In this document: positions 31,532 through 45,636 of the stretch, in pieces
Position numbering within the stretch: position 1 is the stretch's first letter
Layout: each line of letters begins with the position of its first letter
NCBI GenBank assembly: GCA_965222375.1
Contig: CBDCTZ010000008.1
Span: 224,001-288,000 of the forward strand
From: Polyangiaceae bacterium
GTDB taxonomy: Bacteria; Myxococcota_A; Polyangia; Polyangiales; Polyangiaceae
Reading direction: 5' to 3'
Length of the DNA stretch: 64,000 nt
Position numbers and translations under genes: made by a program
Notes under the pieces: generated by a model
Database searches by the model: none
Told to the model about the DNA's origin: nothing
What the model saw: only the letters and a program-made list of their open reading frames with translations

Positions 31532-31605
31532 CGGGGTGTACCTCAACCTGGTAGAGGGCCGGCTTTGGGTGCCGGACGTTGAGAGTTCAAATCTCTCCAC
31601 CCCGA
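31532..31605 (+). tRNA. tRNA-Pro (TGG)
   Basis: Full cloverleaf: CGGGGTG/CACCCCG acceptor, CCTC/GAGG D arm, CCGGC-TTTGGGT-GCCGG anticodon arm, GAGAG-TTCAAAT-CTCTC T arm; CCA not encoded. Confidence 0.97.
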
Positions 31606-32925
31606 CTGGTTTTTCCACTTCGCCTTGCCCCGTTTGGACACAGCTCCTGTCCGAACGCCAACGCGGAGCTTTGGCAACGCCGCCTCAGGGAGGGCCCGAA
31701 TCCTGCCACCGCTCTGGAGATAGCGCTGGTGCGCCTCCAGTGAGGCGTGCCCTGCCAGAGCTGTGGCTTGCTGGACATTGACGTCTGCGTCAGCCAGGGC
31801 CTGCGAGTAGGCCCGGCGCCAGCTGTGAAAGTCCACGGGCAAAGTGAAGTCGGTTTCGACGAACAGCTCCCGTTCCCGCGGCGTCATTTCGCGCTTCTGC
31901 TTCCAAGCCATCCGAACCAACTTGCGGCGGTTAGACCTGATGGTTTCGCGCTTCTCTAGCCCGTCGACCCCGAAGGCGCGCCGCAGGTCACGACGGAACG
32001 CCAGGGCGTGGCTCGTCTTGCCCTTGGGCTCCCCGGCCCGCTGTCCACGCCTCGACGGGAACAAGTGGCCCGTCGTTGGACGCCCTGCCCGCTCCCACCA
32101 GTCCCGCAGGATCGGCCGAAGCATCTCCGGCACCTCCAAGAGTTGGGGGCGCCGGGTCTTGCGCCTCGGTGCCCAACCCCACGTAAAGCCCGCGGCGGTG
32201 CCACCAGGGCCGGGCTCAAGGTCAAAGGCCTCCCAACACAGCGTGTGCAGGTCGCCGGTGCGCAGCCCGCCGAACATCCGTGCGATGCAGGCCATGGTTT
32301 GACGCTCCAGCACTCCATTGCGCCATTCCTTCTCAGGATGCTCCCAGGCCAGGTAGACCGCGAGTTCTTGGTCCGTCAGAACGGCTCGCTCTTTCCTAAC
32401 CGCCTCGGGAAACTTCGGCATGGTGACCCCATCCGCGGGGTTCGCATCGACGGCACCCTCGCGGACCAGCGCTGCGAAAACGTTGCGGAGGTCTTGCTTC
32501 AGGTGTGTGACGGTCTGCCTCGACTTGCCAGCGGCCTTGCAGTCGTCCAGCACGGTGTTGAGGTCGGTCGTTGGGATCTTGGTGACCTCGGCGTCCCAGA
32601 TCGCCGTCGCGTAGGCCTTCAGCCTCGCGATCTCGTCTTTGGCTCCGACCACGCCATCCGAGACCCGCGCCTCGTGCACGCGCTCCGCAACATAACCGAA
32701 CGGCTCGGCCCGCGCCGCGGTCTCAGCGGTGGGAACAATGCCTCTCTCAGCGTCGGCCACGAGCTTCGCTAGCTTTCGCCGTGCAAGTGTCTTGTTCGCT
32801 GTTCCGAGTGGGAACCAGCGTTTCTCTTTGACAGGTTTCCCGTCGACGTAGCCGACAACGACGGGGATGCGTGCGGCCCAGCCTGCCTTGGTCCAGATCA
32901 GTGTGCCTGTTGGTTTTCGGGGCAT
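31543..32925 (-). CDS. int: tyrosine recombinase/integrase (reads through attL into the tRNA antisense)
   Basis: GGLRTGD (R), DFHSWRR (HxxR), LAGH, HQRY (Y); N-terminal arm-binding-like domain. Confidence 0.93.
   Translation of the reverse strand: MPRKPTGTLIWTKAGWAARIPVVVGYVDGKPVKEKRWFPLGTANKTLARRKLAKLVADAERGIVPTAETAARAEPFGYVAERVHEARVSDGVVGAKDEIARLKAYATAIWDAEVTKIPTTDLNTVLDDCKAAGKSRQTVTHLKQDLRNVFAALVREGAVDANPADGVTMPKFPEAVRKERAVLTDQELAVYLAWEHPEKEWRNGVLERQTMACIARMFGGLRTGDLHTLCWEAFDLEPGPGGTAAGFTWGWAPRRKTRRPQLLEVPEMLRPILRDWWERAGRPTTGHLFPSRRGQRAGEPKGKTSHALAFRRDLRRAFGVDGLEKRETIRSNRRKLVRMAWKQKREMTPRERELFVETDFTLPVDFHSWRRAYSQALADADVNVQQATALAGHASLEAHQRYLQSGGRIRALPEAALPKLRVGVRTGAVSKRGKAKWKNQSGWRDLNSQRPAPKAGPLPG
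31562..31614 (+). repeat. attL core (3' part of tRNA-Pro plus 9 nt)
   Basis: GCTTTGGGTGCCGGACGTTGAGAGTTCAAATCTCTCCACCCCGACTGGTTTTT, identical to 45457-45509. Confidence 0.95.
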
Positions 32926-32939
32926 GTCAGGTCCTCTAG

Positions 32940-33866
32940 CTAGATGCGGTAGGGCGCCTGTGAAGGCCGAACCAGATCCGGCGAATACCCATGTGTTTTG
33001 AGCAAAGACCGAGCCCCGTGTGGTCCAGTTTCGGGATTCTGTAGCGGACCAAGTATCACGCTCTCCAGCTCAAATTGCCGTCCCCTCGCCGCCGGGATCT
33101 TCACGAAAGGGACAACTCCGGTCGCCCGCGCGCGATGGCACACCAAGTTGGTCTTGAGTGACCCCGCAGCCAAGAGCCTCCACTCGCGTTCCTCTGCGAA
33201 CGCGGAGTGCTTCGCTCTCGGCACAAGGAGGGCAGCCTGACGGAGCATTATCACCACCGCACGCTTCGCAACCGGGACCACGTCGGACACGTTGCGGTCC
33301 GAGACGAACTTGGCGAAGGACTCGGCTAGACGGCGAAACTGATGTCGCATCCGCGCCTGGAGCTTCTGCTCATCGTATTCAACCTTCGCAAGCATCAGCG
33401 CCAACGAGTCTGGCGTGAGTTCCACGCCTTCTTTCGGCATGGGGAGTTGCGCGAAGCCAACCGAGAAGCCCGCACCACCACTTGCATAGCCACGCCACTG
33501 GCTCAAGAGGTCGCCATCCTCAGAGAACGACGCGAGGAACAGATCCGCGACCTCACTCAACGGGACCTTCTTATGGGCCTCGCAGAACTTGCGCAACAGT
33601 TCGTCCGCAAGGTGGTTGCCGGTGGTGACCGTCTCCGCTGCAGCGTCCACCAGACGCTGACCGAGTTTCAGTTCCTCACGATCGTTCAGGTGCAGCGCGT
33701 GTGTCGCCCAAATCTCGCCTTTCTCGATCATTCCAACGAACCCCGTCGCGTCGGTGTAGTGGTAGAGCGGCACGTTCTGGGTGTCGTCGAGTTCTTCCAG
33801 CGAGAGCGCCTCTTCGAGCTCGACGAGTAGTGATTCCTCCTTTGAGTTCGACTCGGAAACTGTCAC
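32940..33866 (-). CDS. DUF2971 domain-containing protein
   Basis: LYHYTD..G..IWAT..LND..E, SFSEDGDLLSQWRGY, KHSAFAEEREWR. Confidence 0.85.
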   Translation of the reverse strand: MTVSESNSKEESLLVELEEALSLEELDDTQNVPLYHYTDATGFVGMIEKGEIWATHALHLNDREELKLGQRLVDAAAETVTTGNHLADELLRKFCEAHKKVPLSEVADLFLASFSEDGDLLSQWRGYASGGAGFSVGFAQLPMPKEGVELTPDSLALMLAKVEYDEQKLQARMRHQFRRLAESFAKFVSDRNVSDVVPVAKRAVVIMLRQAALLVPRAKHSAFAEEREWRLLAAGSLKTNLVCHRARATGVVPFVKIPAARGRQFELESVILGPLQNPETGPHGARSLLKTHGYSPDLVRPSQAPYRI

Positions 33867-33932
33867 GGCCGCGCCTCTGTGAGGGCATGCGCTTCCGTGG
33901 CTGCTTTCTCCGTCATGGCACTTCTCCTGGCC

Positions 33933-34118
33933 TCAGCGCTTCCGCTTCGTCTTGGGGCGGGCAGCGGCCCTGATCGGCACACCGAGCTGTACGGCGTAGG
34001 CCCTAACGGCCCGCCGCACGATGTCCGAGCGCTTCAATCGCTCGACCTGTGCGCAAGCCTCCAGCAGCTCCAGGTCATCCGGAGGGAACTTCACACACAC
34101 CGTGGTCAGATCGGCCAT
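33933..34118 (-). CDS. ribbon-helix-helix (CopG-like) DNA-binding protein
   Basis: TTVCVKFPPDDLELLEACAQVERLKRSDIVRRAV beta-alpha-alpha pattern. Confidence 0.7.
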   Translation of the reverse strand: MADLTTVCVKFPPDDLELLEACAQVERLKRSDIVRRAVRAYAVQLGVPIRAAARPKTKRKR

Positions 34119-34229
34119 GGAAGACACGGTAATACTGTGTCTTCCATGAATCAAGCACGAGATGCCAAAAAACGGCCTTCAAGCAAGCGCATGTGTCGTT
34201 CCCGTTGAACGCGGTAGGATGTCCACGAG

Positions 34230-34754
34230 ATGACCGACCGGAGCGACCCGCTCAACCAAGGAATCGAGAAGGCAGTCCCACCTCGCAAGCAACCACACTG
34301 GTTCTGGCAGGGCCTGAGTACTGGTGTCGTCGGGGGACTCCTCGGCGCGGGAGTCGGCATAGTGGGTGGCGTCTATCACCTAGGAAAACTCGAAGAACGG
34401 CTCGACACAATCAGGGCAGATGTCACCGGCAAGCTGGAGGCGGTGCGAGCAGAGGTGCGCGGGAACAGAACACTCATCGAAAACCACAAGGCCTGGCACG
34501 ATGGGCGCGCGGGCAGTCCAGTGCACGCAGCGCCAATGCCATCGGCCAACCCGCCTGGGAAGCGCGACATGCCTTGGACACCGGAGTTCCGTAAAGCGCG
34601 AGAAGCGTATTGCACCAAGCGCTGTGGTCAGAAGTACCCTGAGACCACGTGCCACGGAGAATGTCGTCAGCAGTTCCACGATTGCGGCATGGGCTGCAGA
34701 GCAGACCCAAAGGACCCGTGCTTCAAATCTTGCGTGAAAGCGCTGAATCGCTAG
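34230..34754 (+). CDS. membrane-anchored protein with Cys-rich C-terminal domain
   Basis: Gly-rich TM, short coiled coil, 8-Cys tail CTKRC..TCHGEC.. Confidence 0.6.
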   Translation: MTDRSDPLNQGIEKAVPPRKQPHWFWQGLSTGVVGGLLGAGVGIVGGVYHLGKLEERLDTIRADVTGKLEAVRAEVRGNRTLIENHKAWHDGRAGSPVHAAPMPSANPPGKRDMPWTPEFRKAREAYCTKRCGQKYPETTCHGECRQQFHDCGMGCRADPKDPCFKSCVKALNR

Positions 34755-34775
34755 GACAACCGACGGACGTGCCTG

Positions 34776-35663
34776 ATGAGGGACTACGAGCTTGACGAAC
34801 TGAAGGAGTTGTCCAAGCGGCTCGATGCCAAGTCGACCCTCCGGGAAGATGAAGTCAAGGTAAAATCGCGCACGGGTTGGAGCGTGACCGTGGAGGCACC
34901 TTCCATTGAACACTTGAACGTAAGAAGCACAGACCGACGGCGGGCTCGACTCACTCTCAAATCCGCACTGATCGAGCAGCTAGGCGAGCGCGGTCTCCTT
35001 CGGCCGAGCGAGCTGGATGACGTTCAATACGGCTACGGGGATGCGGCAACCCACAACCAAGAGGTGTTCGAGGACCTCTCCGGCATTCTTGAGCAAGGCC
35101 GGGCGGAAGAAGAGCTTCAGAAGTGCCTTGGGCGACATCCCGACATCTGGCGCTTTCTCGTCGGAACGAGGCCGCAAGTTGTCGACAAGATGCCACTTGG
35201 GCAGGCGTTTGTAACGGACTTCGTTGTGTTTGGCGCCGTCCTATGGGGTCAGTCGGAGACACCGACGGCAACGTTTGTGGAGATAGAGCGCGCTGACGCG
35301 AAGCTGTTCACCGCGAAAGGCGATCCTACGCGCGAACTGACGCACGGATTGCGCCAACTGCGAAACTGGAGGCAGTGGATCGCGGACCACAAGCAACAGG
35401 TGCGCGAACACCTGCTGGAGAAGACGCACCTTTCGTGGGAGCGACACGGCTACGAGGGACGGAGCGCTGGTGTTCCTGCGTACGGCTTCGCTGACGAATA
35501 CCTTCTGGTCATCGGTCGCAGGGGAAGCATGACTCCCGCCCAACGTTGGCAGTTGCAGCAGCTGTCTGCGGAACTGCCGAAAACGAATATCGTGACGTAC
35601 GATCTACTGCTGGACGTAGTTTGCCCAGAAGCTCCCTGGCCTCGTTGGATGGTCGAGGACTGA
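34776..35663 (+). CDS. Shedu (SduA)/DUF4263-family nuclease, copy 1
   Basis: EEELQKCL..HP, TDFVV, FVEIER..KLF, LTHGLRQLRNWRQWI, LLVIGRR, IVTYDLLL: DUF4263 motif order. Confidence 0.8.
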   Translation: MRDYELDELKELSKRLDAKSTLREDEVKVKSRTGWSVTVEAPSIEHLNVRSTDRRRARLTLKSALIEQLGERGLLRPSELDDVQYGYGDAATHNQEVFEDLSGILEQGRAEEELQKCLGRHPDIWRFLVGTRPQVVDKMPLGQAFVTDFVVFGAVLWGQSETPTATFVEIERADAKLFTAKGDPTRELTHGLRQLRNWRQWIADHKQQVREHLLEKTHLSWERHGYEGRSAGVPAYGFADEYLLVIGRRGSMTPAQRWQLQQLSAELPKTNIVTYDLLLDVVCPEAPWPRWMVED

Positions 35664-35796
35664 CGGCCCCAACAGCCGCCGAACCTCGATTGTCGCTGCC
35701 CGCAATAGTCCGCAGGCACCTGCTTCGCACTCGGCGCATTGACGCGGACATGGCCTGCCGTTCCAATGACTGCCGTTCGACACGAAAGGCCGAACC

Positions 35797-36684
35797 ATGG
35801 GCGATGACGAGCTAGAAGAACTGGAGCACTTGGCGAAACGTCTGGATCCCGACGCGAGCATCGTAGAACACGAGACGGACACGCCGCCCGCTCCCAAGTG
35901 GGTCGTGACTGTCGATGCGCGAACGTTGGAACCGGTGGAAATTCGATGTGCGAGCCGATCGCATGCCAGGCGTACTCTCAAGTCGTCCCTCCTTGAGCTA
36001 CTGGGCGAACGCGGGATGCTTCGCGCGCCCGAGGTCAACCGAGAAAACTGGGACCAGTCTGTTCCAGGAATGCAAAACGAGAAGGCGCACGCCGAGCTCC
36101 TAGACGTGCTCGCGAGCGGACGAGTCGAAGAGGACCTTCAAAAGTGTCTTGAGCGACACCCCGATATCTGGCGCTTTCTCGTCGCAACTAAGCCGCAGGT
36201 GGTGAACAAGATGCCTCTGGGGCATGACATGGTGACCGACTTTGTCGTTTTCGGCGCCGCGCCCTGGTCTCAATCTCAAATGCCGACGGCGACGTTTGTC
36301 GAGATTGAGCGCGCTGACGCAAAAATGTTCACTGCGAAGGGTGATGCGGCGCGGGAATTGACTCATGGCTTGGGCCAACTTCGAGATTGGAAACGGTGGA
36401 TTGGCGACCACAAGCAGGAGGTTCGGGAGTACCTCCTGGAGCACACCGCACTCAGCTGGGAGCGACATGGTTTCGAGGGCGAGTACGGCATGCCCCCATT
36501 TGGATTCGAAGACCGCTACCTACTTGTCATCGGCCGCAGGGCGAGCATGACGTCGGCCCAACGCTTTCAGCTGCACAAGTTGTGCGAAGACACTCCCAAA
36601 ACCACAATCGTCACGTTCGACATGCTCCTTGACGTGGTGTGTCCCGAAGCGCCGTACTTTCCGCCCTGGATGTGGGACGACTGA
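35797..36684 (+). CDS. Shedu (SduA)/DUF4263-family nuclease, copy 2
   Basis: Paralogue of copy 1 with the same motifs (EEDLQKCL, TDFVV, VEIER, GQLRDW, VIGRR, VTFD). Confidence 0.8.
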   Translation: MGDDELEELEHLAKRLDPDASIVEHETDTPPAPKWVVTVDARTLEPVEIRCASRSHARRTLKSSLLELLGERGMLRAPEVNRENWDQSVPGMQNEKAHAELLDVLASGRVEEDLQKCLERHPDIWRFLVATKPQVVNKMPLGHDMVTDFVVFGAAPWSQSQMPTATFVEIERADAKMFTAKGDAARELTHGLGQLRDWKRWIGDHKQEVREYLLEHTALSWERHGFEGEYGMPPFGFEDRYLLVIGRRASMTSAQRFQLHKLCEDTPKTTIVTFDMLLDVVCPEAPYFPPWMWDD

Positions 36685-36765
36685 CACGGACTACCCCTCT
36701 CGCCAGCAGGCCTTGCTTCGCGAGAGGGTCTCGGGCTGGGTGGTCCGCAAGCCACACCTCACCGG

Positions 36766-37680
36766 TCAGGGAAGCGCGAACGTTGAGAGGTCGATAGGCT
36801 CACCAGTTGCCAGGTGAAGAAACGGCTTCTGGAGGCGACCAGCAGCTGCGGCGTACGCCTTCGGGCTTGGCATTAGCTCAGGCTCGCGCAAGCCCAACAC
36901 ACGCGCAAGCCCGGCAGCGGAGCAAGGAGCCAAGCCACACTTGAACAACTTCCTAGCACACGGTTCGAAACCGTCATGGACAGTTCCCCAGGGGAAAGCG
37001 TCAACGAACCCTGTGCCAGGTTCAGGCCGCAGCTTGCTAGCCTCAACGAGGCCGGCACGGACGGATGCCACGACCTGGGCCGTACACACGTCCGAGTTCT
37101 CATCGGTGGGAAAGTCGGCGATGAGCATCTTCATTTTCGTGGGAAATGCTGTCCAACATTTCGCTCGTTCTTGCCCGGTGCGCTTGCCGCCGGCAGCTTG
37201 GTAGCAAAGGCCGTGGCACGTCTGATCGTTGCAACGCCTCTGGCAGCGTTCGTAACTCTCCGTGTACTGGAGAGATCCGTCGCGGCGTTCGTAGATGACG
37301 CCGCGGGCACAAGTATTGGCCTCGTTGTACTTGACCTCGGCGCGCCGCAGGATGGGGTAGCTGCTCCGCAGCGCGCGCGCCATTGCCGTGGCCTGCAGAA
37401 GCGTGCGTGGTTGCACTTCCGGAGTCTCCGCCGCCTGCGTGGCTTCCGGCTGTGCGCCACGCCGCGCGAGCAAGTAGACCGCAAGCCCCAGGACGACAAC
37501 AACTCCAATGAGCCAAGCACCTCGTGCTGAGTATCTCCTGCCGCTTTGTGGTCGTCCCGTTGGTCGCAGCCCTGACGGATGGTCCACGGCACGGTGCTGC
37601 GCGAGACCACTACCACAGTGCTTGCACTTGATCGCTTCCGTCCGGATCTCCTCGGCGCAGTATGGACATTTGCTCGTCAT
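36766..37680 (-). CDS. zinc-ribbon membrane protein with Cys-rich external domain
   Basis: CPYCAEEI..AIKCKHCGS, single TM, CQRRC..TCHGLC. Confidence 0.7.
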   Translation of the reverse strand: MTSKCPYCAEEIRTEAIKCKHCGSGLAQHRAVDHPSGLRPTGRPQSGRRYSARGAWLIGVVVVLGLAVYLLARRGAQPEATQAAETPEVQPRTLLQATAMARALRSSYPILRRAEVKYNEANTCARGVIYERRDGSLQYTESYERCQRRCNDQTCHGLCYQAAGGKRTGQERAKCWTAFPTKMKMLIADFPTDENSDVCTAQVVASVRAGLVEASKLRPEPGTGFVDAFPWGTVHDGFEPCARKLFKCGLAPCSAAGLARVLGLREPELMPSPKAYAAAAGRLQKPFLHLATGEPIDLSTFALP

Positions 37681-37763
37681 CTTCGCTCCGCTAGGTCGCC
37701 CAGCTAGACACGGTACTCGAATACCGTGGCCGCGACAACGCGACGGGGCCTACGTGGTCGCAA

Positions 37764-38027
37764 ATGCCGAAGCGCACGCGTTCTCCGGACACGACGCTGC
37801 TGCGCCAGGTGGGCGCTCGCGTTCGGCATGCGCGACTGGCCGCAGGATTGACACAAGAGGACGCGGCCGGACAAGCAGGAATGGACTGGCGTCGGTGGCA
37901 ACGTCTCGAGGCTGGCGAGGTTAACGCGACCATTGGCACGCTCGGACGCGTGGCGAATGCGCTTGGCTCGGATCTTTGGTGCCTTCTCGGGTCGACTGAT
38001 CCGCGAAAACCTCGACGCCCAAGGTAG
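37764..38027 (+). CDS. XRE-family HTH regulator
   Basis: VGARVRHARLAAGLTQEDAA..WQRLEAGEVNATIGTLGRVANAL. Confidence 0.9.
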   Translation: MPKRTRSPDTTLLRQVGARVRHARLAAGLTQEDAAGQAGMDWRRWQRLEAGEVNATIGTLGRVANALGSDLWCLLGSTDPRKPRRPR

Positions 38028-38112
38028 GCTCCTTGATCGGAGAGCGTCGGGAAGAAAGCGCCCAACTCGGCATCGCAGCAAGTCGTTACGCACGCAGCAC
38101 ACGTCAGCCCCA

Positions 38113-39723
38113 TCAGTAGGGACCTCGCCGCCAAGACTCACTGCTTTCTCGATCCGGGAGACGCGTACGTGTCCCGCAAACGATGACGCTACGACCCGCC
38201 CAACATTCGGGGTCATCCACGTACCCGAATGCCCCCCCCTGCGTGTGCATCGAACCGGGATCTCCTCCGGATTGCGCCCCGACCGTCGAGCTACTTCGCG
38301 AGGCGTGCCACAGCGCCAGCACGAAGGCCGACACGAGGTCACCGTGGGCTCCGCCGCGGCGGGGCGAGGTTATCTTGAGCCCGCCGCCAGTCGTTGGCTG
38401 GCTTACGACCTCGCCAAGCTGCACCGCAAGGCGCGTCAAAGTGCTCGGAATTCGGATGCGCCCAGCATGCAGCAGCTCACGCGCGACGCCGTACGATCGC
38501 GCCTTGCCCATCTGGCCACCCGGAGCCTGATACAGCTGTAGGTCGTGGGAGGTCGCCGCCTCGCGGACAGCTTCCAAGTAGAAAGCGTCGCTGCTGAATC
38601 CCGAGCCGCCATAGTCCCTCACCATCTGGCAGAAGCCGCCAGTGACCACACTCGGCACCAGAGGTTTGCCCTTGGCCGGCCTGCGCTCGAAGGCGGAACA
38701 GACGACGTACGAGGGCCGATTCTCAGAGCTCGCGGCGACCACAACACCCGCTGCCGCATCCTGACGGGCTGCGAAGTCGTAGCCGGCTCCGACCACCCAA
38801 TGACCAAGGTTCGAGAGCGAGTCGAGGGCGACCGGACACGGCAAATTGTCATCGAGCGCGTCCGAAATCGCGCCCCTGTCGAAGTACGCACCTGCACCAC
38901 CGGTGAACGGCACACAGTCGAACTCGCGCGCAGCGTTCAGCGGATCTCGGACTCGCTCGGCCTCAACAACAGCCCGAATCTTTGGACTATCGGGACGCAT
39001 CAGCTCGGTCGGAGCAACGCACGCCAGTGCTGAACTTGGCGAGCCGAGGTTTTGGCGGACGAGGTCATGCAGCAAACCCGACTCCAACCATGCAGTGCTG
39101 ATAACGCACAGAACTCCGTCGGCGACGATTCGCACGGCGAGCGCACGGAACAGCTCTGAATCGTTGATCTCCCCGCTGTCGCCGTCGCGGAAGAAAGCCG
39201 ACTCGTCCATCAGTCCAGCCAAGAGCGTGCGACCTCGTAGCGCCGACCCGCCGCGCGTTGCCGGCAGGGCAGTCACAACCACGCTGTAGCCGTCAGGTCG
39301 CCTGATCGTGAGCGAGTCAGAGCTGCGCCCGGCAACGAACCGCGCAAGGTCAGGCGACGCCATGGCCGCCCCCGCCGCGTAGCGCAGGCCCTGACGCGCC
39401 AATCGCATGTCCGGAGCTACAATCGGGCAGAACCCAAGTTCGCCCGCAGCAAGGCCCGCACAACTTGCGGTGAAAGCTCGATACAACAGGAACAAAGAGC
39501 AGAGCCAGGTACCACCCGCACGTGCACCCTTTGTCACTGCGAATACTCCACGCGCCTCCAACGGCACCGTGTAGACATCGCCAAACAGCTGCCGGGCGTG
39601 GTCGCGCGCCGCCCCAGTCAGGTCGCATGGCTCGACGGCGTCAAATCCCACGCGAGCGAGAACCCGTTGCGCGGGCGTAAGATCGACACGCAGAACGCAG
39701 TCCGCGAACTCTTCGAAGCGCAT
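38113..39723 (-). CDS. terL: phage terminase large subunit
   Basis: LTPAQ, deviant Walker A KGARAGGT, RGRTLLAGLMDESAF Walker B, VISTA coupling motif, AGYDFA..D and HGDLVSA nuclease motifs. Confidence 0.8.
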   Translation of the reverse strand: MRFEEFADCVLRVDLTPAQRVLARVGFDAVEPCDLTGAARDHARQLFGDVYTVPLEARGVFAVTKGARAGGTWLCSLFLLYRAFTASCAGLAAGELGFCPIVAPDMRLARQGLRYAAGAAMASPDLARFVAGRSSDSLTIRRPDGYSVVVTALPATRGGSALRGRTLLAGLMDESAFFRDGDSGEINDSELFRALAVRIVADGVLCVISTAWLESGLLHDLVRQNLGSPSSALACVAPTELMRPDSPKIRAVVEAERVRDPLNAAREFDCVPFTGGAGAYFDRGAISDALDDNLPCPVALDSLSNLGHWVVGAGYDFAARQDAAAGVVVAASSENRPSYVVCSAFERRPAKGKPLVPSVVTGGFCQMVRDYGGSGFSSDAFYLEAVREAATSHDLQLYQAPGGQMGKARSYGVARELLHAGRIRIPSTLTRLAVQLGEVVSQPTTGGGLKITSPRRGGAHGDLVSAFVLALWHASRSSSTVGAQSGGDPGSMHTQGGAFGYVDDPECWAGRSVIVCGTRTRLPDRESSESWRRGPY

Positions 39724-39848
39724 GGCGTCTGTACTCCTTTCGACAAGTGCGCTTCTGGCAACCGCTCAGACGGCCAATGTCCCTGGCTGTCCGAGCGGCA
39801 GGGCCGCGACTTCGACCCTTCGCGGTGGAGCCTCCGCTGCCAAAAAAC

Positions 39849-40457
39849 TCATCTCCAACGCAGACCGAGCCACTCCTCGCATTGATAGCCAGCGAGTCCT
39901 GCGTCGTGAACCGCTCTGCGGAACGTCGCGGCAAACTCGCGGTACCGGGGTTGGACTCGGCCGGGGCTGCAATCGCGTAGGCCGTGCTGCTTGCAGAACT
40001 GCTCCAAGCGCGCCGCCGCGCTTGACCGCCGGGCAACGCAGCTCAGCTCTTCACGCACTGCATCAAGTAGCGCCATTGCCCGCGTTCCGAAACTCTCCAG
40101 GCTCAGCTCTGGCTCCCCCCAGGCCACCGCCGCATCCTCGTCGGCTGCGTCTAGTTGGGCGCGAAAGCCCACGTCTTCCCATCGACGCTCGGAACGCGCG
40201 AGTGCCTCACTCGCCAACCGATGTTGCGTACGTGCAACGTCAATCTGCGCCTTCGCGGCTGCCACGCCGCTTGCATCCAACCGACCGAGAGCCGCCTCGG
40301 TTGTTGCGTGTTCGGCTGCGGCCACCGCCTGGGTAGTCTCCGCTGCCAACTCGTCAACGCGCTCGCGCTCGCTCTCGATGCGCTCACGGAAGGCGCGGCT
40401 TGCGCGCCCAAGCTCTTCGTCGGCCGCGTCCGCCGAGGACGAAGTTGCCGCACTCAC
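39849..40457 (-). CDS. hypothetical coiled-coil protein
   Basis: Ala/Glu-rich helical ORF coupled to 40454-40792. Confidence 0.55.
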   Translation of the reverse strand: MSAATSSSADAADEELGRASRAFRERIESERERVDELAAETTQAVAAAEHATTEAALGRLDASGVAAAKAQIDVARTQHRLASEALARSERRWEDVGFRAQLDAADEDAAVAWGEPELSLESFGTRAMALLDAVREELSCVARRSSAAARLEQFCKQHGLRDCSPGRVQPRYREFAATFRRAVHDAGLAGYQCEEWLGLRWR

Positions 40458-40792
40458 AGTCTGCCTCCATCGATTACTCGGCGCTGCGAACGAAGCCGGC
40501 GCGCGTGCCTAATTTGCGCGTCCAGCGGCATGCTTGCGAAACTCGCGTCTCGAGCGCACATGAAGTTGATCAGCTTCTCCGTAACGTTTCGCCCGGCCGT
40601 CGTCGAAAGGTCCACCGGTTCGTTGGTGTCCCGTTCATTCTCTTCCAAACGGGTGACAAATATTGCGAGCGCTCGCGCCACCGGCAGGCTTCGATCCTGG
40701 GCGCTGAGCGTCTGGTAGACGTCCGCCAGAGAGTGGTTGTGAAGCTGTTCGGCGAGCGCCCCAAGGTCTATCCTGTTTAGAGTTCGTCGCAT
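40454..40792 (-). CDS. hypothetical protein
   Basis: Overlapping chain of minus-strand ORFs in the element. Confidence 0.55.
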   Translation of the reverse strand: MRRTLNRIDLGALAEQLHNHSLADVYQTLSAQDRSLPVARALAIFVTRLEENERDTNEPVDLSTTAGRNVTEKLINFMCARDASFASMPLDAQIRHARRLRSQRRVIDGGRL

Positions 40793-41493
40793 GATTTGGT
40801 TCTTCCCTTGTGATTCGGGGCGCCTCCCGAGGTTGTTTCTGTATCGTTGTCGCTAGAGGCCGCTGATGGACGCGCTGAGAGCGTTTGGGCACCGTCGGTG
40901 CTCGGGTGCGCCGTCAGGGCGGAAGGCTCGCCAGCGGGCCCATCAGAGCCCCCGATGGACCACCAAGCCGGAGCCGGAGCGCTCTTCACACGTGCCTCGG
41001 CCTCGCGTGCGCAGAGTTCGTGAGCCGCAAGCAGGTTCTGGCGGCTGTCATTCGCAAGCCTGCTGCCAAGCTGCACTTCGCCCAGAACCTCAAAGGCAAA
41101 TCGGCTCGCAGCCAGCTGAAGTGCGGCAGACGCGATGATGCTCGATGGTGCCGGTCCACACTCGCCGCCCCCGACGCACTGAGCCAACCGCCGGACATGC
41201 AAGCGCCGGAAGGCCTTCGCAGCACCCGCGTATCGCTCAAACCGCGGATCCGCGAAGGTGTCTCCCAGCGCAACCCGCCGAGCCAGGCGCGACTTCCCCG
41301 CTCTCGCCTTCCCACCCAGGGCCGACAGCGCCCGGTGGCTTTCCGCATCCGCGGGGCGCCCATTGGCATCGCGGCGAATCTCCGGTTCGCGTGGCCGGTT
41401 CAGCGCCGCCACGCCGGCCGGCAGTTCATCCGCCGACAGCACCTCCACTCGGGGCACACCGGCGCCGTTTCCATGGCCACTGCGCAGGCTCAC
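40777..41493 (-). CDS. hypothetical protein, candidate small terminase
   Basis: RRDANGR..ALGGKAR basic N-terminal motif, helical core, upstream of terL; function is inference; GTG start chosen. Confidence 0.4.
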   Translation of the reverse strand: MSLRSGHGNGAGVPRVEVLSADELPAGVAALNRPREPEIRRDANGRPADAESHRALSALGGKARAGKSRLARRVALGDTFADPRFERYAGAAKAFRRLHVRRLAQCVGGGECGPAPSSIIASAALQLAASRFAFEVLGEVQLGSRLANDSRQNLLAAHELCAREAEARVKSAPAPAWWSIGGSDGPAGEPSALTAHPSTDGAQTLSARPSAASSDNDTETTSGGAPNHKGRTKSCDEL

Positions 41494-41779
41494 TGGGAGC
41501 CTCCGCAAGTGCGCGAAACCATTGGGGCCACATCGCTTTGTCCAAACACTCGTGTCCGAACGCAGCCGGAAACGCCTGCAAAGGAGCTACACGGAGCTCC
41601 TGAACGCCGGCTGAGCGAGCCGACGTGCGAAGGCTCATGGGGCAACAACTTCGCGCCCAGCGCCACGGCATGCGCGGCGCCGTGATCCGCTACGCTGCCG
41701 CAGCCGCCGAACTTCCGGGTTCGCGCCTGCGTATGTCGCCGGGGGGGGCAAGGTCGACTCCCGACTTTCGGCTCAGTGC

Positions 41780-41880
41780 TGACGCCACTGACAGACCTGA
41801 CACGCTCTCCAAAGTCACGGGGAGCGCGCGCGCGCGCGAATGCTTCTTTGTGAAGACCGTCAACCGCGTCAGGCTCGTCA
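41780..41880. other. candidate replication origin: symmetric iteron arrays
   Basis: TGAC at 41780/41789/41798 mirrored by GTCA at 41859/41868/41877 around an alternating GC run (41824-41838), right after the helicase gene. Confidence 0.6.
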
Positions 41881-43242
41881 ATCTTCATGGTCGATCCCCG
41901 TTGAAAGCTCGACGGCGTACCGCCGGGCGCGGCCATCAGATCTCGATGGCAGCCCAAGCAGCCGCATGCGTTCACCAAAAGTGTTACTGGCGACGGGTCG
42001 GTGGCCATTCTCGCCCGCCCACGTGCGATACGCCCGGTAGAGCTTGTCGGCAGCCATGCCCTCGATTACCGGTGCATTGAGGGCAAGCTTCCTCGTCGAC
42101 GCCTCCACGAACGCGCGAACCTGATCGGCGCGAGCTCTCCAGCGATCCTTTGCTCGGACCGAGCTATCAGGCACCGTGAACATGCCGTTTGCCAGGACGC
42201 GCTGCGCGCCACGGAGCATCCAGCTGACCACTGCGGCCCCGTCACGACGCAGGATCTCGTCAGCCAAGTTCACATTCTGTTCGGTCTCATCGAAGATGCG
42301 GTTGAACTGCAAGACCATGAGCCGACGCCAGAAGCCGTGCGTCTGGTCCGTGGTCCCGGGCAATCGGTTCGCGCTGTAGATGTGACCTGCGACCGGCTTG
42401 AAGCCGAAAGGGCTCTGACGAATTGCACGCGCCGTCGTCGTGTCGCCTGCCACTACCGACTTCCAGGACTCGGAATCCAAGATGTCTGCTTCAGGAAGTT
42501 CGGAAACCACATTCAGCAGCTTCCCGGCGAGAGCCGCCCGCCGATACTCTTGGCCGATGTCCTGTGGCGCGATGCTACAGACACTGTTCGGCGGCATGCT
42601 TCGTTCGGCAACAGCAGCCAGCACACCCTTCCCGTTCGCGCCGTCGCCCACGAGCACGAGTGCACGCTGAAAGCGAGTAGCCAGGCCGAGCAGAGAAATG
42701 CCGAGGTACTCCTGCACCAGCTGTACTTTCTGTTGGAGATCGGAGTCGCCTCGAAATACAGAACGAAAGAACTGCAGCAGCGCCACCGGCTCCGAATCGA
42801 AGGTGTAGCCAAACCTGTACGCGAACCGTGCCCGGTGCTCAGGACAGTGCTCATGCTGAATGATCCGGTCGCCCGTCACCTCAACGAATGAAGACGCGAA
42901 CGCAACGCCTCGCCGAGCCTCGTCGAAGAAACGCGGATCCGCGAGCTGGTCGGCCGCTAGTTTGAGCGTACCGCCTACGTCGGAGGCCTTTAGGCGCAGA
43001 GGCTTCTTTTCCCCGGTAACCTTGGTGCCAGCAAAGCCCTGCACGATTCGGCTGAGTCTGGTGGGCTCCACCCGGTCGAAGACGCCGCGACTCGCAACGT
43101 ACTGGTAGACGAACCCCTCAGCGAACGTTGTGCACGCTTCAGCCGTGAGCTTCCCAACGAGACGGTCCGCACACTCAACGTGGTCTCCGCGCGCAAACGG
43201 TGTACGGTCGAGCGGGGTCACCTTTGGGGCCAGCACGGTCAC
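41878..43242 (-). CDS. P4/D5-family SF3 helicase without primase domain
   Basis: D5_N-like region, GDGANGKG Walker A, LAGKLLNVVSE, HIYSANRLP, GFWRRL, C-terminal wHTH. Confidence 0.9.
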   Translation of the reverse strand: MTVLAPKVTPLDRTPFARGDHVECADRLVGKLTAEACTTFAEGFVYQYVASRGVFDRVEPTRLSRIVQGFAGTKVTGEKKPLRLKASDVGGTLKLAADQLADPRFFDEARRGVAFASSFVEVTGDRIIQHEHCPEHRARFAYRFGYTFDSEPVALLQFFRSVFRGDSDLQQKVQLVQEYLGISLLGLATRFQRALVLVGDGANGKGVLAAVAERSMPPNSVCSIAPQDIGQEYRRAALAGKLLNVVSELPEADILDSESWKSVVAGDTTTARAIRQSPFGFKPVAGHIYSANRLPGTTDQTHGFWRRLMVLQFNRIFDETEQNVNLADEILRRDGAAVVSWMLRGAQRVLANGMFTVPDSSVRAKDRWRARADQVRAFVEASTRKLALNAPVIEGMAADKLYRAYRTWAGENGHRPVASNTFGERMRLLGLPSRSDGRARRYAVELSTGIDHED

Positions 43243-43745
43243 TTCGCTCTCCGGAGCTGTTCCACGGCGCTCGCAGCGTCGATGGCTCCAACGCGGAGCG
43301 CAGCCGCCACCGACTGGCTCAGATTGATCAGTCGCCTCCGACTCGCGAGCTCCTGCAGGCTAGCGACCAGCTCCTCCAGACCACGGCGCGACCTGATTGC
43401 CGGTGCCACGTCCAATTCATCCTGGACACGTCGCGCGCACCACGCGCGATCAAGCCGAACGCAGACAGCGGCAACTCGGTCCGAGCCAGCAGGACTGTCG
43501 CAGTCCTGAACCCCGAGCAACACTTCCCGCGCGAGAGGATCCAGCAGCCACGCAAGCTCCACCTGGTCTGGGGCAAGCGCACCCGCGAAGATTGCATCCA
43601 GAGCAGACCATTCACCAATGCGATCACAAGGCAGCGGCGGCGGTCCAAGCGTATCCGTCAGTCGCAGATCTCGGCGCATGCGCCGCAGCTGCTGCTCTAT
43701 CGCCGCAAGGGAGTCGACCGAGCCGGGTGCCGCACGCATGCTCAT
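43239..43745 (-). CDS. stand-alone DnaB N-terminal-domain-like protein
   Basis: PPLPCDRIGEWSALDAIF..LLDPLAREVL..LQELASRRRLI parallels the DnaB-NTD pattern. Confidence 0.5.
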   Translation of the reverse strand: MSMRAAPGSVDSLAAIEQQLRRMRRDLRLTDTLGPPPLPCDRIGEWSALDAIFAGALAPDQVELAWLLDPLAREVLLGVQDCDSPAGSDRVAAVCVRLDRAWCARRVQDELDVAPAIRSRRGLEELVASLQELASRRRLINLSQSVAAALRVGAIDAASAVEQLRRAK

Positions 43746-44068
43746 CTTTCGGCACCCTCAACGACGCGCAGCCCACCGCGTTTCTGCTGCCGGCGTATCC
43801 AATCGATTACTGCTTCGAGCTCGAACCTGGCGGAGTCCCCAAGCCTCAGCTCAGGAAAGCTTGCCCGCTTGCGCAGACGGTCGAGCGAGCCCAGGCTGAC
43901 CCCGAGGGCGCGCGCGAGTGCGGCCCGGTCCAACAGTGCTGGCACCTGCTCCTCCTCCGGGACAAGTAGCACGCGTAGCCGGGCCGCCAACTCGGGGTCC
44001 GATTCCAGCACCGCGACAGCCTCAGCAAGAACCAACGATGCCACCGAAACTCGGCGAGGCGTGTTCAC
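43742..44068 (-). CDS. AlpA/excisionase-like HTH protein
   Basis: LLDRAALARALGVSLGSLDRLRKRASFPELRLGDSARFELEAVIDWI. Confidence 0.8.
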   Translation of the reverse strand: MNTPRRVSVASLVLAEAVAVLESDPELAARLRVLLVPEEEQVPALLDRAALARALGVSLGSLDRLRKRASFPELRLGDSARFELEAVIDWIRRQQKRGGLRVVEGAER

Positions 44069-44283
44069 CGACGCCCCACAACCCGCGCCATCAGTTGCGG
44101 CGGGCGGTGAATTCCGAGTCTCGCGGCGGCGGAATCCACGACAGCGTACGTCGCCAACGCGACAATGCGTACTTGTCCTGCGTAGCAACGCCGGATCGTC
44201 GCAATCCCGTGACCGGTCTCAATAACGAGGTGTGCTACCTGGAGATCCGTGAGTTTCGGAACGGTAACGTCGGTGTCCTGCAT
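44065..44283 (-). CDS. small HTH-like protein
   Basis: VAHLVIETGHGIATIRRCYAG; GTGA coupling to next gene. Confidence 0.45.
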   Translation of the reverse strand: MQDTDVTVPKLTDLQVAHLVIETGHGIATIRRCYAGQVRIVALATYAVVDSAAARLGIHRPPQLMARVVGRR

Positions 44284-44347
44284 CGCCCGGAAATGAGTTC
44301 CAGGTTTCGGTCCGCCTGTGAACGGCCGCACTGACCGGCCCCCTTGG

Positions 44348-45139
44348 CTACCGTGATTTTTTGATGTTTCTAGCGATGCGATCGCGAGCCTCGGCCTCGC
44401 TTTCCAGCGGCTGCTGAGACTCAATGCCAGCCGCGAGCAAGAGGTCCGCCGCCACGGTCGCGGGTGCCCACTCTTTCAGCGCCGCAACTGCGCGCTCAAT
44501 CGGCACGTTCTCGAAGCGCTCGTCATGGGTCGCCAGAGCCACTGCCCTCAGCGTTGCTTTGGCAGCGGCTGACGCATCGCCGGAGTCCTCCGCTAAGGGG
44601 AATCGCGCTATGATGCCCAGCATCTTTCGATTCCGCGACTGTTTGCCGGGTCCCCGATCCGTACCGCACGCCGCGACTCCAAGTCTTTTCAATCGCTCCC
44701 AGTGCTCAGCTCCGACGTCCGGAGAGAGCGCCCGGGCAACGAACGTGATCACTTCCAGTGCTGCGCGGTCGTGTGCGCGCAGATCCCCAAGCTCCGACGG
44801 AAGCAGGTCGAGTCCTGCCTGGATGAATCGCGCCTGAAGTTCAGGGACCGGCGCCACCGTCTTTTCAGCGCGTCTGGCCCCCAGGGCTCGCGCAAAGGCG
44901 ACGATGGCCGCTGCGCCTTCGTCGCTCAACGCCAGCGCTGCAAGCACCTTCCGCTCGATGGTGCGTACGCGCTCTCTATGCAGATCGGCCTCGGCTTGCA
45001 GCTCGCCTATCCTCTCGCCGACGCTAACCGGTGTTTCGGGCACGCGTCGCTTCGACAGGCTAGCCGCATGCGTTGAATCTGACGCCCGCGAACTTCGCCT
45101 CCGCGACTTTCTCGTGCCGTGTGCTTTTCCTTTCGACAT
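44348..45139 (-). CDS. hypothetical protein
   Basis: Long ORF starting MSKGKAHG, basic N-terminus, helical. Confidence 0.55.
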   Translation of the reverse strand: MSKGKAHGTRKSRRRSSRASDSTHAASLSKRRVPETPVSVGERIGELQAEADLHRERVRTIERKVLAALALSDEGAAAIVAFARALGARRAEKTVAPVPELQARFIQAGLDLLPSELGDLRAHDRAALEVITFVARALSPDVGAEHWERLKRLGVAACGTDRGPGKQSRNRKMLGIIARFPLAEDSGDASAAAKATLRAVALATHDERFENVPIERAVAALKEWAPATVAADLLLAAGIESQQPLESEAEARDRIARNIKKSR

Positions 45140-45197
45140 TGAACCCACTTCGTCACCCTCGGCCCTGCTGGCGGCGAGGCCTCTCTCTATGGTTGTA

Positions 45198-45455
45198 TCA
45201 CCCTGCCTTGGACTGCCCGCCTTTGCCCGCGCTCTCAAGCAGACGCTCAAGCTTCAACGCTAGCTCACGCGCTCGGCGCGGGTCATCTGGCAGTGCAGCT
45301 CGGATTTGGCGAACCCAGCTCAAGATCAAGTCCGTTTGCAGCGAGGCCAGCGTTTGGACACTCGCTTCGGACACTACTGACACATCCTCGGGAGATCCTG
45401 AGCGATCAGGCTCGACCCCATGTGCTGCATTCGACGTATTTTCCGCTAGTTCCGT
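45198..45455 (-). other. alternative 3' end of integrase (85 codons plus stop), joined in the excised circle
   Basis: In frame with the att-encoded KNQSGWRDLNSQRPAPKA shared with the integrase end. Confidence 0.75.
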
Positions 45456-45456
45456 A

Positions 45457-45509
45457 GCTTTGGGTGCCGGACGTTGAGAGTTCAAATCTCTCCACCCCGA
45501 CTGGTTTTT
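45457..45509 (+). repeat. attR core
   Basis: 53-bp perfect copy of 31562-31614. Confidence 0.95.
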
Positions 45510-45636
45510 GCGATTCCGCGCGGCAGCACGATCTGCCAAAAAGCACCCTTGCACGGAGCTGGCGCACTTCCGTTGGTTTGTGCGATTCCGCGCGGCAGCA
45601 CGATCTGCACCCCTGCACGGAGCTGGCGCACTTCCG
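45502..45636. repeat. two imperfect direct repeats (~65-70 bp) after attR
   Basis: TGCGATTCCGCGCGGCAGCACGATCTGC..TGCACGGAGCTGGCGCACTTCCG twice. Confidence 0.85.

Follow-up and report, generated by a model that had tools for sequence, protein, structure and literature searches.

Phage satellites that have been described borrow the terminase of a helper phage (P4, PLE), redirect it by means of a small terminase, TerS (PICI), or build whole heads (cf-PICI). P4 has no terminase of its own and relies on that of P2, through a cos site common to both; the genome of phage Mx8 is about 50 kb in size. In the available text of PMC10085698, the defining genes of cf-PICIs are those for capsid, portal, protease and head-tail connector, which accompany a large terminase, TerL. 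The available portions of PMC6070905 and PMC4383910 place the attP of Mx8 inside its integrase gene, and integration changes the integrase C-terminus.

We examined a 13.9-kb island within a 64,000-nt window (the whole stretch of DNA analysed; all coordinates are positions within it) from a Polyangiaceae bacterium. The anatomy of the island, its intact TerL, its recurrence as a family and the purifying selection acting on it were observed directly. On balance, at slightly better than an even chance, we consider it a phage satellite, integrated in a Polyangia-type myxobacterium and dependent on a helper, that brings its own terminase and is without capsid genes.

Integration and Replication Modules

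The island is inserted at a tRNA-Pro gene and is bounded by a 53-bp att pair. The repeat, foreseen in the original prediction, was exact at both ends (31562..31614 and 45457..45509), and an extended match ran to 60 nt at 95%. The left copy, attL, lies inside tRNA-Pro(tgg), the integration target (31532..31606, plus strand, called by ARAGORN), of which it makes up the 3' part; the right copy, attR, is a displaced tRNA 3' fragment. The available runs, whose low-depth contigs break at the att repeats, revealed neither excision, nor a circular form, nor encapsidation.

The tyrosine integrase (31543..32925, minus strand), also predicted, matched PF00589 at 29.5 bits (cut-off 27.1) and phrog_1 at 2.6e-24. 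Its reading frame crosses the att core and encodes 460 aa in the integrated state vs 540 aa across the in-silico junction of the excised circle; thus attP lies inside the int coding sequence and integration alters the C-terminus, as for an Mx8-type integrase. The tail encoded across attP was 62% identical (E 1e-23) between this element and a sister element in the same genome, and we therefore regard the att pair as genuine. Among 24 relatives inspected, 14 had a tRNA gene that overlapped the 3' end of int. Excision of a 13.9-kb circle from tRNA-Pro would be the work of the integrase, perhaps aided by the HTH_17 protein described below, and would restore the full integrase gene across attP.

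The predicted SF3 helicase (454 aa; 41878..43242, minus strand) was recognized concordantly by DUF5906 (3.6e-11), phrog_864 (1.7e-51) and TIGR01613 (139 bits, cut-off 108.7), the last representing the C-terminal part of the P4-family primase; no primase domain was detected with Pfam, PHROGs or NCBIfam. This P4-family module would replicate the excised circle. Beside it lie the genes for o168 (43239..43745, minus strand), 55% identical to a sister-element protein, and for an AlpA/excisionase-like DNA-binding protein (43742..44188, minus strand). The latter assignment stood only in part, because the HTH_17 match of 21 bits fell under the Pfam cut-off of 27, though three PHROG HTH/excisionase families matched at 1.9e-7 to 1.7e-5. 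The first gene inside attR, o300 (44348..45250, minus strand), had no family match in Pfam, PHROGs, PADLOC or NCBIfam. The coupling of ORFs that had been proposed was evident from the coordinates: the o243/o112 overlap is 16 nt long, and each of the pairs o112/o202, SF3/o168 and o168/HTH shares 4 nt.

The Large Terminase and Its Upstream Genes

The 536-aa protein encoded at 38113..39723 (minus strand) is a genuine large terminase with intact ATPase and RNase H-like nuclease residues, in accord with the motifs first noted. Single-sequence profile matches were weak (phrog_2 3.6e-9; Terminase_6C below cut-off); the family profile matched the solved TerL nuclease domains 5tge/5m1f at 2e-8. The AlphaFold model (pLDDT 82.9) matched the large terminases of HK97, Sf6, D6E and T4 by Foldseek (E 7e-18 to 3e-13, 390-514 aligned columns, both domains covered), the best match being HK97 TerL (6z6d; E 7.2e-18, 514 columns), then Sf6, D6E and T4 gp17; the target TM-score against the G20c nuclease was 0.70 (rmsd 2.8). 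Walker A of the ASCE ATPase (residues 65-72) reads K-GAR-A-GG-T and includes the Walker A arginine; it is of the lambda type (K-GAR-x-GG-T) with K first, the same deviant pattern as KSA-R-VGYS of lambda gpA in Table 1 of PMC6379665. This K-first variant was also found in the bona fide phages L089 and L091, both with portal, capsid and sheath genes. The catalytic E174 of Walker B (LMDE) was invariant, as were nuclease residues D316, D322, D379 and D462 across 18 aligned sequences.

This TerL is not encoded beside portal or capsid genes of its own element. As had been claimed, none of the 16 element ORFs matched capsid, portal, protease or tail families (Pfam, PHROGs at E<=0.01, NCBIfam), nor was any capsid, portal, tail or lysis match of a complete tailed prophage found within the 13.9 kb; the largest unassigned ORFs encode 300-308 aa.

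Three ORFs at 39849-41493 had been singled out as TerS or adaptor candidates, and of these only o243 (40777..41508, minus strand) proved to be conserved in the family; o112 (112 aa; 40454..40792, minus strand) and o202 (202 aa; 39849..40457, minus strand), which separate o243 from TerL, are orphans present only in the window element and the sister element. A BLAST cluster gathered 24 o243 members, every one upstream of the TerL with which it is co-inherited; those of phages L043/L071 and L090 are among them. Its model is four-helix. There was no match to Pfam, an Atlas lead of 0.87-0.88 went to Terminase_4 clusters only, the hhalign probability stayed <1% for two families that take the place of TerS in related phages, and the fold search peaked at Z 7.7, no higher than helical-bundle noise. 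Sequence, profile and fold comparisons thus linked o243 to no known family of TerS or adaptor proteins. Judged by position, o243 is a candidate small-terminase-like DNA-recognition partner of TerL.

Sister Element and Cargo

The sister element (14.6 kb, at tRNA-Asp) shares two blocks with the window element: o243-to-TerL at 93% DNA identity, and the integrase with a DUF2971 gene at 90%. The two copies differ in cargo, tRNA target and replication module (SF3 in the window vs DnaB-like in the sister), so that replication and cargo modules have been exchanged while the packaging block between them stayed conserved. Between the copies dN/dS was 0.14 for TerL, 0.23 for o243, 0.09 for o112 and 0.25 for o202, directly showing purifying selection.

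The DUF2971 protein (308 aa; 32940..33866, minus strand; PF11185 34 bits, cut-off 22; phrog_1762) was 94% identical in amino acids between the two copies. Between its block and the TerL stop codon lies a variable cargo slot (34150..38140), which the blastn block ends delimit as having no DNA similarity to the sister element. The slot holds o174, a Cys-rich protein without family match in Pfam, PHROGs, PADLOC or NCBIfam (34230..34754, plus strand); two Shedu SduA-like nucleases with the SduA C-terminal DUF4263 domain (PF14082 at 50 and 56 bits, cut-off 27); and a 304-aa protein (36766..37680, minus strand) with an N-terminal zinc ribbon (Zn_ribbon_3 26.5 bits, just below the cut-off of 27), which also matched six PHROGs without assigned function. 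The Shedu paralogs, paralog 1 at 34776..35663 (plus strand; PF14082 4.7e-13; PADLOC SduA 4e-16) and paralog 2 at 35797..36684 (plus strand; PF14082 9.4e-15; PADLOC SduA 4.6e-18), share a 300-nt repeat at 73%. The two Shedu genes, the DUF2971 gene and the second copy of the element were absent from the original prediction.

The Shedu pair would suit a defence island, in which TerL and o243 add a weapon against the packaging of an infecting phage, by portal competition or concatemer cutting, and the island itself is not moved in particles. The available text of PMC10085698 and PMC9618062 describes satellites that disturb the packaging of their helpers, and no resident helper was detected in the 98%-complete genome (see below). 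We nonetheless judge this unlikely: the replication module, the att/int system and the narrow sizes of the elements (below) fit a transferable replicon better, and known defence genes are rare in relatives' cargo (PADLOC matches beyond HTH regulators only in the window, L042 and L048, with 107 proteins scanned). Moreover, interference and self-packaging are not mutually exclusive. Under the satellite reading, exchangeable cargo that benefits the host, here the two Shedu nucleases, would occupy the slot that lies between TerL and the integrase. The sparseness of recognized defence genes in the cargo of the family also counts against this satellite reading.

Distribution of the Family

Of 301 genomes searched within the order, 28 carried TerL homologs, and the family set comprised 48 non-redundant genome loci with a TerL homolog, mostly from Polyangiaceae MAGs; the hosts of the relatives are MAGs named Polyangiaceae, Polyangia or Myxococcales. 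Twenty-nine loci were satellite-type, in which the integrase lies 0.7-9 kb past TerL and portal and capsid matches are absent; nine were true phages, and ten were placed in neither type. The gap from TerL to the integrase was only 0.7-1.3 kb in L062, L064, L055 and L040. The gene order of the family is replication, o243, TerL, variable cargo and integrase, and fourteen elements delimited by direct repeats measured 10.9-17.7 kb (median about 14.5 kb). The search for relatives with the same gene order, recommended at the outset, returned tRNA-integrating int-TerL islands of 11-18 kb in 29 of 48 loci. Among the 51 IMG/VR loci, 42 had a portal or capsid gene after TerL and 20 were on 35-51 kb contigs; none was satellite-type, in a collection whose virus-calling pipelines favour hallmark genes.

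We considered if the element could be the remnant of a temperate phage of about 40 kb that lost its head-tail module, with a TerL still present only because the loss is recent or the gene neutral; such a remnant may still integrate and excise and would have no packaging role. The TerL tree did not separate satellite-type from phage-type sequences, and in identity to the window TerL the full phages (<=45%) fall only a little short of the nearest satellite-type relative outside the genome (57%). One satellite-type locus, L072, resembles an intermediate in that it has retained a head protease and a decoration protein. Two of the 29 satellite-type loci, L072 and L086, have a broken TerL, and therefore some family copies decay. 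Against this, the trimmed architecture recurs in 29 loci of many genera whose TerL is 23-57% identical to that of the window (own genome excluded), the att repeats of 14 elements are intact and their sizes vary little, the TerL dN/dS is low with catalytic residues invariant, and modules were swapped around the conserved packaging block in the two same-genome copies; independent decay would not reach one and the same end state again and again. Decay is thus an improbable account of the window element, and the claim that the element is intact was upheld. Neither finding that might have overturned the original prediction was made: the closest relatives (TerL 46-57% identical) are not full prophages, and no ORF was identified as capsid or portal.

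Discussion

The island, one of a family that recurs in soil myxobacteria, probably spreads by stealing the empty heads of a helper phage. In the mechanism we propose, o243 would recognise a packaging site on the excised and replicated element and recruit the element's TerL, which would cut the DNA, dock on the portal of an infecting phage's procapsids and pump satellite DNA in. The helper would be a phage of a lineage of roughly 35-50 kb using the same TerL family, and at about 14.5 kb the elements of the family reach roughly one third of that genome length. Several findings weigh against this mechanism: IMG/VR held no satellite-type locus, the TerL tree mixes satellite-type with phage-type sequences, TerL is broken in L072 and L086, and the 98%-complete host genome gave no match to PF05065, PF04860, PF05133, PF03237 or two portal types of related phages that would mark a resident helper. 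The lack of a helper match, and the dissimilarity of o243 to known TerS proteins, could also suit an integrative replicon whose TerL-like enzyme serves its own DNA processing or another export route, e.g., concatemer resolution or the loading of a non-phage carrier encoded elsewhere. We regard this as very unlikely, since the TerL family elsewhere adjoins portals and capsids, motor and nuclease domains are both conserved as in packaging enzymes, and no precedent for such a role of TerL was found in the available text of the literature cited.

More broadly, and with a little less than an even chance, Polyangia may harbour a widespread, undescribed "motor swap" class of satellites: elements with no capsid or capsid-remodelling genes, whose complete own terminase (TerL plus the small partner o243, which would represent a new family without kinship to known TerS proteins) would load genomes of about 14.5 kb, about one third of the helper genome, into helper procapsids, and whose slot would be an exchangeable bay for anti-phage cargo. 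If so, a motor-only family would represent a fourth satellite strategy and would imply that TerL-portal docking is exploitable across elements. Myxobacteria, a group with little-studied phages, would gain their first candidate satellites, and o243 would be a conserved TerL partner, without an assigned fold family, that is open to study. The variable slot would give a defined place to look for new anti-phage genes, worth searching because most cargo proteins of the relatives match no known family. Such elements would probably go unnoticed by the current satellite finders that rely on profiles of TerS or capsid proteins.

Comparison with Known Systems

The gene set lies outside the known classes, as was first suggested: PICI, cf-PICI, P4-like satellites and PLE, in the descriptions that the available text of PMC10085698 gives, all differ from it, and no described satellite family with the same gene set was found in the portions of the literature at hand. 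The likeness to cf-PICIs, as portrayed in the same part of PMC10085698, lies in a small integrative island with an integrase, a regulator, a replication gene and its own phage-derived TerL; the difference is that capsid, portal, protease and connector were undetected in the window element and in 28 of 29 satellite-type relatives, the exception being L072. The VEIMEs and tycheposons, in what was available of PMC9618062 and bioRxiv 10.1101/2020.12.28.424599, are likewise tRNA-associated tyrosine-recombinase islands (5-18 kb) that encode primase/helicase proteins and AlpA-type regulators and, in some cases, packaging functions; however, these sources report TerS, "motor-like ATPases" or a capsid protein, and the portions available describe no conserved pair of TerL and partner.

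PICIs and SaPIs resemble the family in size (although the PICI median is 9.5 kb in the available text of PMC10085698 vs about 14.5 kb here), integrase, accessory/defence cargo and packaging redirection, the last being presumed here, and more tentatively in AlpA-type HTH and primase/helicase module. From the PICI set of regulator and replicase genes, the integrase and helicase are present, HTH_17 reached 21 bits against 27 with PHROG HTH matches of 1e-7 to 1e-5, and no primase domain was detected. PICIs carry TerS as the only packaging gene and use the helper TerL, whereas this family carries TerL with a conserved partner of no known family, and no known TerS family was matched; a further difference is the integrase, which closes the operon at its distant end and whose frame crosses attP. 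With P4 the element shares the TIGR01613 helicase match, tRNA integration and a size about one third of the presumed helper genome; P4 Sid, Psu and Delta gave no Pfam or PHROG match at E<=0.01, a threshold that divergent analogues could escape. Finally, Mx8 is a complete phage and the window element is without virion genes, yet the two are alike in that integration changes the integrase C-terminus, here from 540 to 460 aa.

Results

The genome containing the window (10.6 Mb, 98% complete) carries an element at tRNA-Pro(tgg) (31532-31606) that is bounded by an exact 53-bp direct repeat (31562-31614 and 45457-45509), the left copy being the 3' part of the tRNA gene; the repeats enclose a span of 13,948 bp. 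Third-position GC is lower in the element (0.66-0.75) than in the flanking genes (0.78-0.85). Reading from attR, the minus-strand genes (ORFs named by length in amino acids) are o300, to which family matches assigned no function, an HTH_17 protein, o168, an SF3/P4-family helicase (DUF5906; TIGR01613 at 139 bits vs a cut-off of 108.7), o243, o112, o202, the large terminase TerL (536 aa) and a zinc-ribbon protein. Plus-strand o174 and two paralogs of the Shedu nuclease SduA follow, and the integrase end holds a DUF2971 protein and a tyrosine integrase, the int 3' end entering the tRNA. All items listed in the original prediction (att pair, integrase, SF3 helicase, TerL, HTH gene) were found, but its "AlpA/Xis-like" label for the HTH gene is weak because the HTH_17 score is below the Pfam cut-off. 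Scans of the element ORFs with Pfam, PHROGs and NCBIfam gave no match to capsid, portal, protease, tail or lysis families.

Immediately outside attR (45502-45636), a 64-72-bp unit occurs twice in tandem, with the first copy beginning inside the final 8 nt of the att core; earlier integrations may have left these copies behind, or they may belong to a host repeat. Just upstream of tRNA-Pro, ARAGORN called a tRNA-Phe (30725-30815, minus strand), possibly falsely, since 91 nt is an odd length for tRNA-Phe.

A second TerL, 93% identical, was found on contig C5 of the same genome, within a sister element of 14.6 kb that has a 45-bp exact repeat at tRNA-Asp. At the DNA level the two elements match over two blocks: int plus DUF2971 (90% identity), and a region that begins 120 bp upstream of o243 and ends with the TerL stop codon (93% identity). 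Different cargo fills the space from DUF2971 to TerL, and the elements are also distinct in the replication module (DnaB-like helicase in the sister vs SF3 in the window) and in the C-terminal third of the integrase and the att site. Window-to-sister dN/dS was 0.14 for TerL, 0.23 for o243, 0.09 for o112, 0.25 for o202, 0.23 for DUF2971 and 0.25 for int. The shared blocks and low ratios therefore indicate that the packaging block is a conserved, selected cassette recombining between otherwise different elements.

Joining the att sites in silico lengthened the window integrase from 460 to 540 aa and that of the sister from 458 to 544 aa. The tails added across attP are 62% identical between the two elements (E 1e-23) and are therefore coding sequence; int reading across attP confirms that recombination did produce both att pairs. 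Myxophage Mx8 is known to have the same arrangement (PMC6070905, PMC4383910). Of the 24 loci examined among relatives, 14 have a tRNA gene that overlaps the 3' end of int. The two integrases (31543-32925 in the window; 5327-6703 in L003, the sister locus) are near-identical over the first ~240 residues and diverge in the catalytic third and att-spanning tail, their targets being tRNA-Pro vs tRNA-Asp; dS between the elements varies by gene from 0.06 to 0.51. This looks like recombination inside int that would have swapped target specificity.

Element sequence was present in four read runs of one study as low-depth Logan contigs that end at both att cores; these contigs listed no attL-to-attR skip or attP joint, no RNA run was listed among those with the element, and the reads are uninformative on excision and expression. 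They hold a lone joint with 21-nt sides from 33807 to 41401 (depth 3.4), which is too weak for reading.

Because single-sequence evidence for TerL was weak (phrog_2, 3.6e-9), homologs were collected; of 301 genomes in the order, 28 carry one. A family profile of 18 homologs matched solved TerL nuclease domains (2e-8), and E174 (after Walker B), D316, D322, D379 and D462 are invariant in the alignment. The AlphaFold model (mean pLDDT 82.9, disorder only in residues 480-536) matched the large terminases of HK97, Sf6, D6E and T4 over both domains (E 7e-18 to 3e-13). We consider it very unlikely that the protein has some other DNA-processing role.

The one-genome-per-species contigs and IMG/VR were searched with an 8-sequence TerL alignment; the single TerL protein as query gave no match in either. 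Genomes of the order supplied 21 loci and the one-genome-per-species contigs 36 (10 of these duplicates), for a non-redundant set of 48, window included, carried mostly by Polyangiaceae, Polyangia or Myxococcales MAGs. A simple GC-frame rule was used to call ORFs at the loci, which were then grouped into BLAST clusters and compared with Pfam and PHROGs families. Satellite-type loci, with integrase 0.7-9 kb after TerL and no portal or capsid match in between, numbered 29 of 48; nine were phage-type, with a portal and usually also a capsid gene directly after TerL, and ten were left unassigned by contig ends or an integrase out of view. Satellite-type loci usually run from a replication helicase through an o243-like gene, TerL and variable genes to the integrase. 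One genome (G192) carries both L049 and L050, a possible case of a satellite-type and a phage-type TerL together. At four loci (L062, L064, L055, L040) the TerL-integrase gap is just 0.7-1.3 kb, so head genes have no room. The 14 elements delimited by direct repeats (20-59 bp) measure 10.9-17.7 kb (median ~14.5 kb).

The original prediction held that the element is not a decayed prophage, and the evidence favors that position: the architecture recurs, the ends are intact, sizes fall in a narrow range, selection is purifying and modules have been exchanged. All of this speaks against decay, and we regard a prophage remnant as an improbable reading. The same observations stop short of proving packaging. 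Individual relatives vary. L072 and L086 each have a disrupted TerL reading frame. In L072 (11505-13773) the broken TerL is followed by a head-maturation protease (phrog_328, 5e-29) and a protein for head decoration, with portal and capsid absent, and this locus may be intermediate between phage and satellite. L078 (3555-15751) has two integrases together with a 43-bp repeat at tRNA-Val (4839-4881 / 15679-15721), which suggests a tandem insertion of two elements; the one with TerL measures just 10.9 kb. The 14,335-bp contig L035 is one whole element with 45-bp att repeats 10 nt from either end; since assemblies tend to break at such elements, as in this contig and the Logan contigs ending at att cores, the family is probably undercounted.

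The window TerL has the Walker A form K-GAR-A-GG-T, in which the usual GK[ST] lysine is absent and a lysine stands at the first position. Walker A was matchable at 40 loci of the non-redundant genome set of 48: 15 carry the first-position lysine without the canonical one (K-GAR-x-GG-[ST]), 25 have GK[ST] without the first-position lysine ([C/A/L/V]-GAR-x-GK-[ST]), and none combines the two, an all-or-none switch. The IMG/VR loci gave 2 K-first and 39 GK[ST] forms, plus 2 doubtful regex matches. Lambda-type and canonical P-loops covary naturally inside one TerL family. Lambda gpA itself has the K-first pattern, KSA-R-VGYS, according to Table 1 of PMC6379665, as do the IMG/VR phages L089 and L091, both with portal, protease, capsid and tail-sheath genes; the K-first form is therefore a working variant and no sign of decay. 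The same two phages rule it out as a satellite marker.

IMG/VR held 51 loci with related TerLs (<=45% identity to the window TerL). A portal or capsid cluster follows TerL in 42, none is satellite-type, and 20 come from contigs 35-51 kb long. With 10 of its 19 inner branches unresolved, the TerL tree is star-like and gave neither supported separation nor supported mixing of satellite-type and phage-type sequences. The phage-type TerLs in IMG/VR, with a tree that does not set the two types apart, point to the satellites using the terminase lineage of temperate phages of ~40 kb from related hosts, and such phages are the obvious candidates for a helper. Neither an HK97-type capsid nor Terminase_6N was matched in the genome that contains the window, nor were two portal Pfam families or two portal types of related phages, so a helper would need to be external.

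A 24-member BLAST cluster upstream of TerL contains o243; a further 5-member cluster (L039, L040/L065, L045, L049) aligns with it, and members also occur in phages L043/L071 and L090. Family members share an N-terminal region, GHG...PRVEVL...ELPA / GRFAPGN, ahead of a four-helix bundle. No Foldseek match in PDB or BFVD reached E<=0.001. In a wide VIA-align search the best Z (7.7) did not exceed the noise quoted for helical bundles, nor did several phage neck/adaptor chains in the top 50 (9oab, 8vb4, 8ck1, 9lu4, 8zdl, 9d80), so "adaptor" stands only as an alternative label. Pfam at E<=5 on all 14 o243-family members gave scattered single matches only, and hhalign against two families in the TerS (small terminase) position of related phages gave probabilities <1%; Pfam, hhalign and fold searches thus found no link to any known TerS or adaptor. 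The predicted complex of TerL (1-480) with o243 (1-200) scored 0.00 and gives no verdict. We infer, only from position and co-inheritance, that o243 may be the DNA-recognition subunit. The neighboring o112 and o202, also put forward as TerS or adaptor candidates in the original prediction, are orphans confined to the window element and its sister; a search of 5.8 billion proteins, covering near-length candidates only, gave no o202 homolog beyond its own cluster.

The tandem Shedu paralogs (34776-36684; a 300-nt repeat at 73% identity, 1021 bp apart) are preceded by the Cys-rich 174-aa ORF; the doubled Shedu gene is an unusual cargo. PADLOC on 107 proteins found Shedu (window), a QatA/PifA-like ATPase (L042), a methyltransferase (L048) and HTH regulators. 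Support for a family-wide "defence hotspot" is weak, and packaging interference in the service of defence is, in our estimate, an unlikely explanation of the element. Some relatives carry tail-related cargo (L035, 2867-3643; L041, 11721-13079; L051, 12538-13101; L034, 12343-13821), of kinds that include a Dit-like/tail-fibre-like protein, a collagen-like fibre, a "virion structural protein" (phrog_1731, 1.5e-24) and an M23 peptidase; these are hints that some members may modify helper tails.

Discussion

The best fit, to which we give somewhat better than an even chance, is a helper-dependent satellite that supplies its own terminase and has a variable cargo slot, occupied here by Shedu. Its interest is chiefly that of a well-populated, testable family of phage satellites. 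Literature searches turned up no description of a TerL-bearing, capsid-less satellite, though the VEIME and SatelliteFinder supplementary tables could hold cases. In published accounts, PICIs are described with TerS only and the capsid-forming cf-PICIs with TerL alongside capsid, portal and connector genes (PMC10085698); of the marine satellites, tycheposons carry TerS or a capsid protein (10.1101/2020.12.28.424599) and VEIMEs carry TerS and "motor-like ATPases" (PMC9618062); and a 2026 preprint on myxobacterial viruses describes complete phages only (10.64898/2026.09.14.751636).
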